Shown here: positions 26,450-30,935 of the stretch, piece after piece
Layout: every line of letters begins with the position of its first letter
Numbering within the stretch: position 1 is the first letter of the stretch
Source: Chlamydiae bacterium RIFCSPLOWO2_12_FULL_45_20
GTDB taxonomy: Bacteria > Chlamydiota > Chlamydiia > Chlamydiales > SM23-39
Direction: 5' to 3'
Assembly (NCBI GenBank): GCA_001796285.1
Contig: MGMD01000001.1
Coordinates: forward strand, 10,143 to 74,142
Length of the DNA stretch: 64,000 nt
The notes under the pieces: model-generated
What the model saw: the letters and a program-made list of their open reading frames with translations, nothing else
What the model was told of the DNA's origin: nothing
Databases searched by the model: none
Position numbers and translations under genes: made by a program

Positions 26450-27328
26450 TTAAAAATCAACTTTTGTACAACATTTTTCTTGAAAACTTCTCGCCTGAAG
26501 TCTAATCCATGAACTGGGTCCTCCAATATCGGGATAGCCATCAATCCATTTTGCTGGTCTCACCACAATTTGTCTCTGATTTTGATTCAACCATGCCCCC
26601 CACCAACTAAAGGTAGAATTGCCAATAATATTATGCTTGCAAAGAGTTTGGAGGTAAAAATCAATGTAGTGGGGTTCCTGTTCAATAAAGAAGACATGTC
26701 TCCCCTTTGTTGAAATGATTTTTTTTGCAAACTCCATGTTGTCGCTGACAACGAGAAAAAGAGCTTCATTCGAGAAAAGGTTCATCGCCTTTTCATAATA
26801 TTCTTCATCATACTGCCTAAAGGCTGGCTCATCAGGCTTTTCAGCAAAGTAATAACGGATGTGGACGCAAACGCTCTCCGGATGATCCAACAACTTTCCA
26901 TACTTATTCTTAATATATTGTAAATCAGATTCTTTCGGCAGAAAAAACGCAATGAGCCGGTCTCGGTAGTGAGCAAAATATTTCTCATTTTGAGAATATC
27001 CTGAAAGCTTCATTCCATTGACAAAAGGGATCGGCTGATAGCCATACACAGGTGTCGACCACTCATAAGTAATCTCATTTGTCGGAGGATAAAGGGCGCA
27101 TCTGAATAGAACATGGTGAAGGCTTTGAGAATGGGGCAAAAGCGGAATGTAGTCGGGAAAATAGGGCTCAGCCCCGTGATCCCAGGCAAGAGCACATGTT
27201 GTTGCCACTTCAAATAACTGGTTGCCAAGGCCACCTAAAATAGAACCGATGATATAGGGTCTATTTTCTCCAAAGAGGCCAAAGCTCATGAAAACGGAAG
27301 AAAGAAAAATCAAGGTTCGATTCTTCAT
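26450..27328 (-). CDS. alpha-1,2-fucosyltransferase (GT11) with signal-like N-terminus
   Basis: GGLGNQLFEVATTCALA at the N-terminal end and NIIGNSTFSWWGAWL near the C-terminus are the two GT11 (FutC-type) signatures. Start at ATG 27328 overlaps the upstream stop (ATGA). Confidence 0.75.
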   Translation of the reverse strand: MKNRTLIFLSSVFMSFGLFGENRPYIIGSILGGLGNQLFEVATTCALAWDHGAEPYFPDYIPLLPHSQSLHHVLFRCALYPPTNEITYEWSTPVYGYQPIPFVNGMKLSGYSQNEKYFAHYRDRLIAFFLPKESDLQYIKNKYGKLLDHPESVCVHIRYYFAEKPDEPAFRQYDEEYYEKAMNLFSNEALFLVVSDNMEFAKKIISTKGRHVFFIEQEPHYIDFYLQTLCKHNIIGNSTFSWWGAWLNQNQRQIVVRPAKWIDGYPDIGGPSSWIRLQARSFQEKCCTKVDF

Positions 27329-28152
27329 GACTTTGTCCGATCCCAAGTAATTAAATGATTCCCGCTATAGGTAAATACAGGCTCTGGATGAATTTTGGGA
27401 TGAATCCCATTCTCTTGAAACAGTTCAATCCATTCTGAAAGGGACAGATGATCAAAAACATTGGTGTCGTTAAAAAGCATATACCCTCGTTTTGCTTTCA
27501 CAGCAACACGCTTAAAATAATCGAGTTGCGTCTCTTTGTCGCATTCAGAAAGAGCGTAATTACTAATAAACAAATCGACCTCTTCCAAAGGCAATTCTGC
27601 ATAGACATCAAGACAGCGGACATTCGGAACGCCTAAAGTTGCTACCATCCTCTCAATCAACATTTCCGCTTCAGGCAAATCGTACACGTAGTAGCGGGAA
27701 AAGGGGACCAGATGAGATAAAACATAAGCTTGTCCTCCAAACCCAGCCCCGATTTCTACAATAGTGCAATGATCAGGAAGGTCGAAGAGCCTCTTCATAG
27801 AATCAGCAAATACGATGTATCTCAAAGTCGTACCTGAAAAAAGACCAAAATTGGGGATCTCATTTCTCACTGGATCTCCATAGAGATCAAGCTTTCGCAA
27901 TGAGCCGATCTGCGAAAGTGTTTGATCCGTTGCGTTCTCCATCAGGTATTGGGCAAACTCTCCTCCCTGCCCACATTCTAACGCATCAAAATAAGGCTTG
28001 ATCGATCTAAACTTTTGAAACGTACAATCATCAAGCGCTGCCTCTTTACAAATTTCCCGATACGACGTGGACCTTCCAGTCATACTGTTTTGAGGGGGAT
28101 TGCTATGTAGTAAATGGCACAACAATATGCTGACAACAAGTAGTTTTTTCAT
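27325..28152 (-). CDS. class I SAM-dependent (sugar O-) methyltransferase with signal-like N-terminus
   Basis: MKKLLVVSILLCHLLHS, then IVEIGAGFGGQAYVL (GxGxG) and YVYDLPE. ATGA overlap with the epimerase gene. Confidence 0.6.
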   Translation of the reverse strand: MKKLLVVSILLCHLLHSNPPQNSMTGRSTSYREICKEAALDDCTFQKFRSIKPYFDALECGQGGEFAQYLMENATDQTLSQIGSLRKLDLYGDPVRNEIPNFGLFSGTTLRYIVFADSMKRLFDLPDHCTIVEIGAGFGGQAYVLSHLVPFSRYYVYDLPEAEMLIERMVATLGVPNVRCLDVYAELPLEEVDLFISNYALSECDKETQLDYFKRVAVKAKRGYMLFNDTNVFDHLSLSEWIELFQENGIHPKIHPEPVFTYSGNHLITWDRTKS

Positions 28153-29195
28153 GACCTATTCTCCTTTAAAAAAGCATCCCATTCACTTTGAATCATCGTC
28201 TTCAAATCGGAAACCTTCGGCTCAAACTCCAAAATCTCTTTGGCCTTTTTAATCTCTGCAACTGCAGAGGAGGCTTCCCCTTCTTTTCGCGGCTTGAATG
28301 CATAGGGAACTTTGAAGCCCGTTACTTCTTCAACCGCTCGAATAATTTCCAGTACAGAATATCCTCGACCTGCCCCCAAATTGAAATGGTTGCTCGCTTT
28401 TCCCTCCAGCAAATGATGAAAGGTCATCACGTGCGCAGAAGCGACATCTTTCACGTGAATATAATCGCGGACTGCCGTTCCATCTTCGGTTGCATAATCT
28501 GAGCCAAAGATTTGTACAAAATGGTCTGGCTCAAAAACTGCGCGAACCGCTCGTGGAATTAAGAAGTGACGGGTATGAACGGATCTTTTTAAGTCCGTAT
28601 CGAGGCCCGCTACATTGAAATATCGTAAAATCATGTATTTCAACGGGTACGCATGAGCATAATCCTGAATGATTCTTTCTATCACTTGCTTGCTTACCCC
28701 ATAGGGGCTAATCGGTGCTTGAGGAGACTCTTCCGAAATACTGTCACAGGAACAATCTCCAAAAACCGTACAGGAGCTTGAAAAAACAAGATATTTCACC
28801 TGATGCTTTATCATAGCATTGAGTAAGTTAATAGAACCCACAATATTGTTCGTGTAATAACTCCCAGGATCAGCTACAGAATCTCGCACATTGCGTAAAG
28901 CAGCAAAATGAAACACCGCTTCAGGCTGATATTGTACAAACGCCCTATCCAAGGCATCCCTATCGAGCAAATCGCCTTCGCACAAAGGCCCCCACTTTAC
29001 AGCCTCTTTTTCCCCAAACGCCAAAGAATCATAAACAACTGGGGTAAACCCTGCTTCTTTAAGTGCCTTGCATGTATGGCTCCCAATATACCCAGCTCCT
29101 CCGGTCACTAAAACAATCCGGTCTGCCTCGGAATATAGGGAACCACTGACAACCATAGAAAACAAGGAAAGACATTGAAAGAGTTGTTTCATCAT
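28149..29195 (-). CDS. GalE-like NAD-dependent sugar epimerase with hydrophobic N-terminal extension
   Basis: MMKQLFQCLSLFSMVVSGSLYS precedes VLVTGGAGYIGSH. It has YGVSK (YxxxK) and overall similarity to the galE at 17818. Start set at ATG 29195 (ATGA overlap); the track's 29315 start would overlap the upstream gene by 124 nt. Confidence 0.75.
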   Translation of the reverse strand: MMKQLFQCLSLFSMVVSGSLYSEADRIVLVTGGAGYIGSHTCKALKEAGFTPVVYDSLAFGEKEAVKWGPLCEGDLLDRDALDRAFVQYQPEAVFHFAALRNVRDSVADPGSYYTNNIVGSINLLNAMIKHQVKYLVFSSSCTVFGDCSCDSISEESPQAPISPYGVSKQVIERIIQDYAHAYPLKYMILRYFNVAGLDTDLKRSVHTRHFLIPRAVRAVFEPDHFVQIFGSDYATEDGTAVRDYIHVKDVASAHVMTFHHLLEGKASNHFNLGAGRGYSVLEIIRAVEEVTGFKVPYAFKPRKEGEASSAVAEIKKAKEILEFEPKVSDLKTMIQSEWDAFLKENRS

Positions 29196-29896: not shown

Positions 29897-29996
29897 TTTG
29901 ATTTCCAAAGTACATTGATTCATAGGCAAAGCACTGTAAACAACTATTTGAATTTCTTGCAAGCCAAAAATGTTTTCAAAACAACAAAGCCGAGGT

Positions 29997-30935
29997 TCAA
30001 AGGGGGATACATTGGTAGATAAGATCATCAAAAAACTGAGGAGAAAATTGCTGCGCTTGTTCACTGAGGAGATATTGCTGAATTTCTTCTATATATCTTT
30101 GATGGATTTCTTGAGGCATTGTAGAAATGCATTCATAAAGCTCTGCATGAGTTGCAAAATCTCGATAATCAATAAAGCATGATTTGGGAATATAGCACTC
30201 TATGTTGTCTGCACCCCAATACACAGGAATGCATCCGGCAGCAAAGCAGCTAAAAATTTTCTCAGTAATATAACCCTGTAATCCTATTGTGTTTTCAAAA
30301 CAGATACAAAAACGGTAATTTTGGAGGGTAGAGATTTTTTCTTCTCCAGAATGAAGACCAAGAATGTGACCTTTGTGCATGGATATATTCTCTAACTCAG
30401 GAGGACATCTTCCATAACATTCTAGCTCTTGGGGATGACTCGCTTCAAAGAACTTGAGCACGTGTAAGCGTGGACTCGTCCAGTTACCTACGACCATCGT
30501 GCATAATTTTCTTTCCGCAAAAGAGAAAGGGTTTTCTCTATATGGCGTCAAATAAGGGTAGTTAAAACGGAAAAACTTGATGTTATCAACCAGAGTGTCA
30601 TCCCAAGTATACACTCGTGAATAAGCATCGTATAAGTCAAACGGCAACACACCCGGTTCCCATACAAAAAGAACGAGCTTTTCTTTGGGCAGCGTAGGAA
30701 TGATGTTCACACCCCCTCCAAAAATAGGATCAAAAACAATGATTTTTTTTACGTCCCGATTCGCAGCAGATTTTGTCAAATAGTCAATAGGACATGTTCG
30801 ATGTATCTGAAATGGCTGTTTTCCATTCAATAATTTTGATGGGAGCTCTTCTATATTAAAACTAGAAACAACATCCACTTCTATTCCATAGATTGAAAAA
30901 ATAAGAAAAGTGCAGAGTAGAAGGATCTTGTTCAT
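29997..30935 (-). CDS. alpha-1,3(/4)-fucosyltransferase (GT10) with signal-like N-terminus
   Basis: FCICFENTIGLQGYITEKIFSCFAAGCIPVYWG is the GT10 nucleotide-sugar motif. N-terminus MNKILLLCTFLIFSIYG. Confidence 0.75.
   Translation of the reverse strand: MNKILLLCTFLIFSIYGIEVDVVSSFNIEELPSKLLNGKQPFQIHRTCPIDYLTKSAANRDVKKIIVFDPIFGGGVNIIPTLPKEKLVLFVWEPGVLPFDLYDAYSRVYTWDDTLVDNIKFFRFNYPYLTPYRENPFSFAERKLCTMVVGNWTSPRLHVLKFFEASHPQELECYGRCPPELENISMHKGHILGLHSGEEKISTLQNYRFCICFENTIGLQGYITEKIFSCFAAGCIPVYWGADNIECYIPKSCFIDYRDFATHAELYECISTMPQEIHQRYIEEIQQYLLSEQAQQFSPQFFDDLIYQCIPL

Follow-up and report, generated by a model that had tools for sequence, protein, structure and literature searches.

The Lewis O-chain of Helicobacter pylori is made by the fucosyltransferases FutA and FutB of family GT10 and FutC of family GT11 together with a GT25 beta-1,4-galactosyltransferase, all of them cytoplasmic enzymes without signal peptides, marked by C-terminal heptad repeats and poly-C tracts, that work on an N-acetyllactosamine (LacNAc) acceptor linked to undecaprenyl diphosphate. 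The textbook rule for bacteria is that nucleotide sugars are used in the cytoplasm only, and that periplasmic steps take lipid-linked donors. Here we consider a stretch of 64,000 nucleotides from Chlamydiae bacterium RIFCSPLOWO2_12_FULL_45_20 (contig MGMD01000001.1; hereafter the window, to which all coordinates refer unless a related locus is named), where these three CAZy families are again found together in a glycan island of 11.6 kb (21012..32589), and where the GT10 protein matches H. pylori FucT (PDB ID: 2nzw) in fold and donor motif. The island differs from the H. pylori system in that its enzymes all carry predicted signal peptides, that repeats and poly-C/G tracts are lacking, that five methyltransferases are present, that GT25 and GT92 come without a GlcNAc-transferase for a LacNAc backbone, and that neither gmd nor fcl is in view. 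On balance, and with a confidence only a little above even, we take the island to be an exported Leloir glycosylation toolbox that would act in the periplasm or at the surface of the cell, and/or inside the lumen of the inclusion, with guanosine diphosphate (GDP)-fucose coming from the host or from signal-peptide-bearing Gmd and Fcl enzymes encoded elsewhere in the genome.

Bacterial glycosyltransferases have been placed outside the cytoplasm before. For instance, the lipooligosaccharide (LOS) alpha-2,3-sialyltransferase Lst of Neisseria gonorrhoeae sits in the outer membrane (PMC4324315), and two further papers describe it taking host-scavenged CMP-NANA (cytidine monophosphate-N-acetylneuraminic acid) to decorate the bacterial surface (PMC10827150, PMC4668040). 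The likeness would lie in a bacterial Leloir glycosyltransferase working outside the cytoplasm on a host nucleotide sugar; the difference is that Lst, from an extracellular or facultative pathogen, works alone and with one donor only, whereas the island is apparently a whole exported pathway that includes nucleotide-sugar interconversion and methyltransferases. In Chlamydia trachomatis, secreted GlgA and GlgB make glycogen in the inclusion lumen, the host transporter SLC35D2 imports uridine diphosphate (UDP)-glucose, and the glycogen enzymes have no Sec signal peptide and leave by type III secretion (PMC4829429). There a nucleotide-sugar-dependent glycosyltransferase acts in a vacuole lumen on imported host UDP-glucose, which is a chlamydial precedent, and a supply of this kind would suit an exported GalE, though the product is glycogen rather than the fucosylated, methylated glycan we propose for the island. 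We found no prior description of chlamydial fucosyltransferases, GDP-fucose or signal-peptide-bearing nucleotide-sugar enzymes in the literature searched.

Protein families were assigned from Pfam and NCBIfam scans of about 40 open reading frames (ORFs) and a six-frame motif scan. Both fucosyltransferase genes fall within one eight-gene minus-strand operon (32589 -> 25530), just as an earlier note on this DNA had placed them; the other six genes encode two FkbM methyltransferases, a divergent FkbM paralogue, a short-chain dehydrogenase/reductase (SDR) epimerase (GalE), a NanM-type sugar O-methyltransferase and a GT92 enzyme. A convergent plus-strand operon encodes a protein like glycoside hydrolase family GH130 and beta-mannosyltransferases (BMT), a Methyltransf_24 (MT24) enzyme and a GT25 enzyme, so that the island's enzymes comprise GT10, GT11, GT25, GT92, GalE and five sugar or S-adenosylmethionine (SAM) methyltransferases. 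Stop and start codons overlap by four nucleotides (ATGA) at five junctions of the minus-strand operon and at one of the plus-strand operon, and the operons are therefore tightly coupled. A promoter and terminator scan gave about what shuffled controls give (29 sites versus 25 expected). The G+C content falls to 0.378 at 30001..32000, which holds the GT10 and FkbM genes, against about 0.42-0.46 elsewhere; this and the mosaic order of island genes among relatives fit frequent exchange of these genes.

The gene at 29997..30935 (minus strand) encodes 312 residues that match the GT10 alpha-1,3/4-fucosyltransferase family (PF00852, E 3.3e-16, 59.9 bits versus a gathering score of 23.9), a threshold likewise reached by its homologues and by fusion proteins; its first 17 residues, MNKILLLCTFLIFSIYG, encoded at 30885..30935 on the same strand, form a predicted Sec-type signal peptide. 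A phmmer search against the PDB returned matches limited to FUT9 and H. pylori FucT-type chains, and a profile of 30 sequences found GT10 fucosyltransferases only, namely H. pylori FucT (2nzw, 5.5e-19) and human FUT9 (8d0o, 7e-19), then 9s6a and 7yro. When the AlphaFold (AF2) model (pLDDT 89.8, pTM 0.86) was compared with known folds by Foldseek, the best 16 matches were all GT10 (2nzw, 2nzx, 2nzy, 5zoi, mango FUT13 7yro and FUT9 8d0w), the best being 2nzw (E 5.7e-12, TM 0.63). The donor motif FxxxFENxxxxxYxTEK is present as FCICFENTIGLQGYITEK and aligns to that of H. pylori FucT and FUT9, while E93, R156 (the GDP-binding Arg), E214, Y222, E225 and K226 are invariant in 30 homologues and N215 nearly so. 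E93, in an LFVWEP stretch that resembles the WMNxES motif, is a candidate for the catalytic base of the N-domain, which the HMMER alignments stop short of and in which we take the base to be E95 of HpFucT and E137 of FUT9. The protein ends directly after the catalytic domain, with no C-terminal repeats. It is a genuine member of the GT10 fucosyltransferase family, for which the sequence and the model predict fucose transfer.

The GT11 alpha-1,2-fucosyltransferase-family gene (26450..27328, minus strand; ORF 26450..27346) is supported by PF01531 (E 2.1e-20, 73.6 bits versus 23.9). Its true start is most likely the ATGA-coupled ATG at 27328, which gives 292 residues, the first 20 being the signal peptide MKNRTLIFLSSVFMSFGLFG. 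Homologues are plentiful (19,211 representatives at E <= 1e-3); a single-sequence search of the PDB gave no match at E <= 0.01, and a profile gave only marginal matches, to GT37 and GT23 fucosyltransferases and to no GT11 structure. For the AlphaFold model (pLDDT 90.9), all of the best 50 Foldseek matches are GDP-fucose-dependent fucosyltransferases (AtFUT1, NodZ, FUT8, POFUT1; best E 4.4e-7). The N-terminal GGLGNQLF, the H156-x-R158 and the C-terminal NSTFSWW motifs are conserved, with L34, G35, W243 and N248 invariant and N36, F39 and S238-W242 near-invariant; we take GxLGNQ[LM]F and STxSWW(A/G)A(Y/W)L to be the hallmarks of the family, and its motifs to be common to this protein and H. pylori FutC. 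Relatives form two classes, signal-peptide-bearing (about 290-320 residues) and classical without an extension (about 250-260 residues), and in related chlamydial loci the GT11 homologues carry a signal peptide in 7/7 cases. This too is a genuine GT11 fucosyltransferase-family protein, with fucose as the predicted substrate from sequence and model.

Thus the family models place both ORFs among fucosyl families, as the earlier note had supposed, and the GT10 donor-binding residues are kept. For GT11 the residues bear this out in part: H156 and R158 reach 90% conservation or more in 36 sequences, whereas motif I (HxRRGDY) reads HIRYYF in the window protein and HIRF, HVRT or HMRS in relatives, the second Arg and the GDY being lost. 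The change of RGDY to YYF is one ground for supposing that these two proteins transfer a sugar other than fucose, such as another GDP-6-deoxyhexose or GDP-L-galactose, which would explain the missing gmd and fcl; others are that about 84 kb of sequence hold no GDP-fucose gene, and that WbgN of Escherichia coli O55, a GT11 relative, reportedly uses GDP-colitose. We consider this quite improbable, given that every characterised PDB match is a GDP-fucose enzyme, that the GT10 donor-binding residues are invariant, that relatives have Fcl, or Gmd and Fcl, beside GT10, GT11 or NodZ-like genes, and that genes for some other GDP-sugar pathway are likewise absent.

Signal peptides were recognised in N-terminal sequences by a heuristic (an M-K/R n-region, a hydrophobic core within the usual 7-15 residues, small residues at -3 and -1, and no later transmembrane segment). 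By it, each of the 10 enzymes encoded between 23758 and 32589 has a Sec-type signal peptide with a hydrophobic core of 10-14 residues, cleavage being predicted, for instance, at MNKILLLCTFLIFSIYG/IEVD in GT10, MKNRTLIFLSSVFMSFGLFG/ENRP in GT11 and MKRSLLLFIWSLHSVFS/YELG in GT92, while none is found in PrmC, RF1, TruA, HAD, ROK, ManA, MlaF, PheS, the UGP3-like enzyme or the second GalE of the window. The start codons of these signal peptides are the ATGs of the six ATGA overlaps, and in GT10 and GT92 the signal-peptide Met is the sole Met upstream of the conserved domain, M1 of GT10 standing alone until about residue 147. Among GT10 homologues of 40-84% identity, a hydrophobic N-terminal h-region occurs in 102 of 112 full-length proteins; 87 of the 93 that can be aligned have K/R within residues 2-8 and 70 of them A/G at the predicted -1, with a median of 19 residues ahead of the conserved xVDI mature start. 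Equivalent signal-peptide N-termini are found in GT11, GT92, GT25 and methyltransferase homologues from 16 loci of chlamydial metagenome-assembled genomes (MAGs). What had been described as extracytoplasmic-looking architecture is real and much more pervasive than the earlier note had it. Two other accounts of these N-termini were rejected. Lipoprotein or Tat signals do not apply, the N-terminal sequences inspected having no consistent lipobox and no twin-arginine motif, and translation of AT-rich upstream DNA is contradicted by the ATGA coupling, the lack of an alternative Met, and the conserved length, charge and -1 residue in more than 100 homologues. In the island proteins, the parity of Cys residues after signal-peptide removal did not point clearly either to an oxidising compartment or away from one.

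The SDR enzyme encoded between the two fucosyltransferases (28149..29195, minus strand) is a UDP-glucose 4-epimerase, GalE (TIGR01179, 362 bits versus a cutoff of 262). We had considered it as a possible Gmd, Fcl or GDP-mannose epimerase, and rejected this on the GalE equivalog score of 362 bits, compared to 44 for gmd (cutoff 415) and 66 for fcl (cutoff 500). The signal peptide, MMKQLFQCLSLFSMVVSGSLYS, sits directly before the GGAGYIGS Rossmann motif, with a cleavage layout of MMKQLFQCLSLFSMVVSGSLYS/EADRIVLVTGGAGYIGS, and the start codon is coupled to the stop codon upstream of it (ATGATGA). A signal-peptide-like extension is present in all of the closest 40 or so homologues, and in 47 among the 120 matches listed, while more distant canonical GalEs begin 2-6 residues ahead of the Rossmann motif. 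The public gene call of this very protein (P0241 among the listed homologous proteins, 335 residues, NCBI/ENA; 100% identical) starts at an internal Met (MVVSGSLYS...), which halves the signal peptide, and the pattern is therefore hidden in database surveys. Apparently the same start-site problem is found in Fcl, where P0126 has 314 residues and P0125 has 333.

A second GalE (17818..18804, minus strand; TIGR01179, 379 bits) has no signal peptide and serves as a cytoplasmic control paralogue. It follows directly downstream of the gene for a Bac_transf phosphoglycosyl transferase (18804..19409, minus strand; PF02397, 1.3e-64), and the two together indicate that a conventional cytoplasmic undecaprenyl phosphate-linked glycan pathway coexists with the signal-peptide-tagged island. 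That pair bears on the most conventional account of the island itself, namely a cytoplasmic LOS/O-antigen or capsule cluster, the default for bacterial GT10/GT11 genes, in which the N-termini would be tethers to the inner membrane on its cytoplasmic side, or mis-called starts, and ordinary cytoplasmic Gmd and Fcl would be encoded elsewhere. Like O-antigen and colanic-acid fucose clusters, the island has glycosyltransferases clustered with sugar-modifying enzymes in translationally coupled operons, and the window holds, besides the phosphoglycosyl transferase and its signal-peptide-less GalE, cytoplasmic enzymes of sugar activation, namely a UGP3-like enzyme, a ROK protein and ManA; the public GalE annotation begins after the hydrophobic segment, and the signal-peptide-bearing Fcl clade of relatives keeps its canonical Met. 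We nevertheless think this account unlikely. Those clusters have gmd-fcl-manC-manB, cytoplasmic fucosyltransferases and Wzx/Wzy, whereas the island lacks these genes and a ligase and has universal signal peptides; family scans of its ORFs found no Wzx, Wzy, WaaL/ligase or ABC exporter. Positive charges before cores of about 10-14 residues, acidic residues after them and A/G at -1 have the geometry of cleaved signals rather than of an N-out/C-in anchor, and a tether is not known to be needed by soluble SDR enzymes such as GalE, Gmd and Fcl. Additionally, a GalE paralogue without the signal is kept in the same window, and the extensions are conserved across homologues of 40-85% identity and are ATGA-coupled.

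If the enzymes are exported, they need GDP-fucose outside the cytoplasm, or a route to it. In the window, neither the Pfam and NCBIfam scans of the roughly 40 ORFs nor the six-frame motif scan turned up gmd, fcl, fkp, manB or manC, and gene calls on identical contigs show housekeeping genes only in the 10 kb beyond each of its ends. The earlier statement that no GDP-fucose pathway is in view apart from manA thus holds for about 84 kb. That gene, a class I mannose-6-phosphate isomerase (48320..49264, minus strand; TIGR00218, 143 bits versus 116; no signal peptide), is the only one of the GDP-mannose route in view.

Related chlamydial loci (numbered L, their listed proteins P) do encode Gmd and Fcl. 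L003, which has a GT10 protein 66% identical to ours and the same FkbM neighbours, encodes an Fcl at 7180..8190, between MT24 and FkbM/GT10 (NF047922, 472 bits, E 8e-142, aligned residues 27-333), with a signal-peptide-like extension of 26 residues, MIRHIMHCFFVWVVIQGISIYG. The extension is present in 52 among the 120 closest matches listed, ordinary bacterial Fcl proteins lower in the list being without it, and the clade that has it is nearest to ordinary bacterial Fcl (about 65% identity), so that the signal peptides arose by addition within bacteria and do not come from a eukaryotic donor. In L020, L022, L027 and L028 an adjacent Gmd likewise begins with a signal-peptide-like segment ahead of GxTGQDG, and L027 encodes a TLC nucleotide transporter as well; the classical GT2 and UDP-glucose dehydrogenase of L020, beside a Wzy-type gene, have no such extension. 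These Gmd/Fcl pairs lie near genes for GT90, NodZ-like (GT23), GT11 and sulfotransferase proteins, the GT90 gene following the pair in L020. By analogy, genes elsewhere in the genome may serve to turn GDP-mannose into GDP-fucose here, within the same exported compartment. Dependence on host GDP-fucose, as first suggested, thus stays plausible, though not as the sole route, since relatives encode signal-peptide-bearing Gmd and Fcl beside their fucosyltransferases.

Further proteins with predicted signal peptides are seen in related islands (L007 171..941, 10926..12633 and 16900..17667; L012 671..1906). They are a sulfotransferase of PF00685, two proteins like NodZ/FUT8 (GT23), a member of DUF268, which takes its name from Caenorhabditis, and an SDR that resembles dTDP-glucose-4,6-dehydratase, so that the predicted exported toolbox extends beyond the fucose and galactose chemistry of this island. 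Fusion proteins in relatives combine the island's families as GT92-GT11, FkbM-GT92-GT11, GT25-GT11 (P0366), GT4-GT11, FkbM-GT10 and MT24-GT10 (P0070), which points to these families acting on one product. The GT92-GT11 and GT25-GT11 fusions suggest, as far as gene fusions can, that galactose is added and that this same galactose is then alpha-1,2-fucosylated.

These observations can be put together as a working scheme, in which the island's enzymes would be exported and would cooperate outside the cytoplasm as a Leloir pathway. Exported GalE would convert UDP-glucose to UDP-galactose, from which GT25 and GT92 would add galactose; GT11 would add alpha-1,2-fucose to that galactose, GT10 would add alpha-1,3/4-fucose, and the methyltransferases would O-methylate the product. 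The GDP-fucose would be host-derived, or made from GDP-mannose in the same compartment by signal-peptide-bearing Gmd and Fcl, with nucleotide sugars and cofactors diffusing or being transported in from the host; candidate acceptors are LOS, an outer-membrane protein or a lumenal matrix. Such a pathway would be workable only because this putative obligate intracellular bacterium is surrounded by nucleotide sugars, SAM and NADPH (reduced nicotinamide adenine dinucleotide phosphate) of the host.

Several points weigh against the exported toolbox. Export of the island enzymes is inferred by heuristic from N-terminal sequence. The altered motif I means that donor binding by GT11 could differ. In the Fcl clade (L003; P0121-P0180) the ancestral start Met is kept just after the predicted cleavage site, e.g. 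...AEMDLHAKIWVAGH, which would allow dual initiation and hence a possible cytoplasmic isoform beside the exported one. Lastly, the cofactors are a difficulty: to our knowledge NADPH, needed stoichiometrically by Fcl, SAM, needed by the methyltransferases, and 3'-phosphoadenosine 5'-phosphosulfate (PAPS), needed by the sulfotransferases of relatives, are not known in the bacterial periplasm or the inclusion lumen.

The cofactor problem would vanish if the proteins were effectors that leave the bacterium by way of Sec followed by type II secretion or vesicles, and whose targets, in the cytosol or secretory pathway of the host, were glycans of the host or of the inclusion membrane rather than bacterial ones, the cytosol supplying all cofactors. 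Sec-dependent chlamydial proteins such as CPAF do reach host compartments, and GT10, GT11, GT23, GT25, GT90, GT92, Sulfotransfer_1 and DUF268 are families typical of the eukaryotic Golgi. GalE or Gmd/Fcl would, however, be redundant in a host cytosol that already makes UDP-galactose and GDP-fucose; at least 10 cooperating enzymes, together with the fusions, suggest one defined glycan assembled near the bacterium; and no host-targeting motif was seen in the proteins. We therefore rate this as improbable.

Golgi glycosylation in eukaryotes, which includes nucleotide-sugar transporters, can also be set beside the proposed exported pathway of the bacterium. The same families (GT10, GT11, GT23, GT25, GT92 and sulfotransferases), N-terminal targeting and a compartment apart from nucleotide-sugar synthesis are common to both. 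The differences are that Golgi enzymes are type II membrane proteins, whereas the N-termini of the island are short, apparently cleavable bacterial signals with no stem region, and that eukaryotes keep GalE, Gmd and Fcl in the cytosol, while in these Chlamydiae they are signal-peptide-tagged. We put forward more tentatively, with somewhat less than even confidence, that environmental Chlamydiae possess a complete, Golgi-like and host-fed extracytoplasmic Leloir pathway, with at least six glycosyltransferase families, methyltransferases, sulfotransferases and GalE/Gmd/Fcl, wired by Sec signals added to unrelated cytoplasmic families. From its cytosol the host would supply UDP-glucose, GDP-mannose or GDP-fucose, along with SAM and NADPH, and such wiring would be possible only for an obligate intracellular organism.

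What the toolbox makes can be considered separately. The earlier note, citing the H. pylori precedent, had suggested Lewis x/y-type mimicry, and GT25, GT10 and GT11 are indeed all present. The remainder of that case is weak: the Pfam and NCBIfam scans detect no GlcNAc-transferase family in the island, no C or G run of seven or more occurs in 21012..32589 and hence no poly-C/G phase-variation tract, and there are five methyltransferases. The source, moreover, is a MAG from groundwater, with a protist as its probable host. For these reasons a methylated glycan of fucose and galactose is more likely than a mammalian Lewis epitope.

The remaining enzymes of the island fit into the two operons as follows. 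The last gene of the minus-strand operon, 14 nucleotides after GT11, encodes the GT92 enzyme (25530..26435, minus strand; PF01697, 8.8e-33; signal peptide MKRSLLLFIWSLHSVFS), a member of a UDP-galactose-type galactosyltransferase family. The NanM-type putative sugar O-methyltransferase (27325..28152, minus strand; TIGR04371, 52.3 bits versus 44; signal peptide MKKLLVVSILLCHLLHS) has ATGA overlaps on both sides. For the divergent FkbM paralogue (29192..29896, minus strand; signal peptide MTKIAAFLLCVILGLSQRLEA) the family follows from a BLASTP alignment to an FkbM244 protein (E 6e-13) that begins at the signal peptide; its probable start is M57 of the ORF, the L003 homologue beginning at the equivalent Met. 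The FkbM protein of 308 residues (30932..31858, minus strand; PF05050, 2.1e-8; TIGR01444, 44 bits versus 37.7; signal peptide MKIQTVTLFCISLIPSLGHS) has homologues of 68-85% identity that adjoin GT10 in L001-L003, and the first gene of the operon encodes the other (31855..32565, minus strand; PF05050, 4.4e-20; with a signal peptide), which has 236 residues from MHRLGG... according to the gene call on the identical contig L017. On the plus strand, the MT24 or rhamnosyl-O-methyltransferase-like enzyme (23758..24444; PF13578, 1.5e-16; signal peptide MKKIFFLYGLLAAISPLFSSNA) is followed, 10 nucleotides after its stop codon, by the GT25 enzyme (24455..25390; PF01755, 2.9e-10; signal peptide MNILIVVHVFLAVFSTWSLHA), from the LOS/collagen beta-galactosyltransferase family. 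The GH130/BMT-like protein ATGA-coupled to MT24 (22565..23761, plus strand; PF04041, 2.1e-5, below the gathering score) has an N-terminal membrane anchor, as does a paralogue (21012..22220, minus strand; weak PF04041 and PF12141) whose homologues stand beside islands in L002, L011, L014 and L018.

Elsewhere in the window, a UGP3-like UDP-sugar pyrophosphorylase (6093..8081, minus strand; PF25441, 3.5e-32, with weak PF01704; no signal peptide), of the type of plant plastid UGP3, may supply the bacterium with UDP-glucose of its own. Two GT90 (CAP10/POGLUT-like) proteins are encoded on the minus strand at 289..1518 and 47174..48316 (PF05686, 1.4e-42 and 8e-35), the second of which has the N-terminus MKKFSFFAFFLVAMIGFG and lies between the ROK kinase and manA. 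A thioredoxin reductase-thioredoxin fusion (12235..13623, minus strand; Pyr_redox_2 from residue 30, Thioredoxin at residues 361-459) has a signal-peptide-like N-terminus, MFHFFQSFLLAIFLPILSLGSVQVEE, that is included in the public gene call (462 residues); an exported NADPH-dependent enzyme of this kind would, judging by that N-terminus, pose the same question of cofactor supply as an exported Fcl. The gene is flanked by those for two paralogous sulfatase-family proteins (PF00884) with multiple transmembrane segments (10378..12249 and 13702..15519, plus strand), possibly of the EptA/LtaS type, which suggest further modification of the envelope. Adjoining the island, a plus-strand operon at 32754..35573 encodes a 134-residue tetratricopeptide-repeat (TPR) protein, with a weak TPR match, and coiled-coil or hydrophobic proteins, and resembles a type III secretion chaperone/translocator set. 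The stretches 50610..52316 (minus strand) and 52423..53540 (plus strand) encode two adjacent proteins of 277 and 290 residues, with signal-peptide-like N-termini and no Pfam match, and beside them a DUF8085 pair at least one of which has a signal peptide.

If this reading is true, a signal-peptide-tagged Leloir pathway, with GalE in this island and Gmd and Fcl in its relatives, would overturn the textbook rule of exclusively cytoplasmic nucleotide-sugar use for obligate intracellular bacteria. Public annotations that truncate the signal peptides, as for this GalE, make the pattern invisible in current databases. The finding would also extend the idea of a host-fed, metabolically active vacuole or periplasm beyond the glycogen of C. 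trachomatis, so far its only demonstrated case, and would predict fucosylated, O-methylated glycans at the surface or in the lumen of environmental Chlamydiae.

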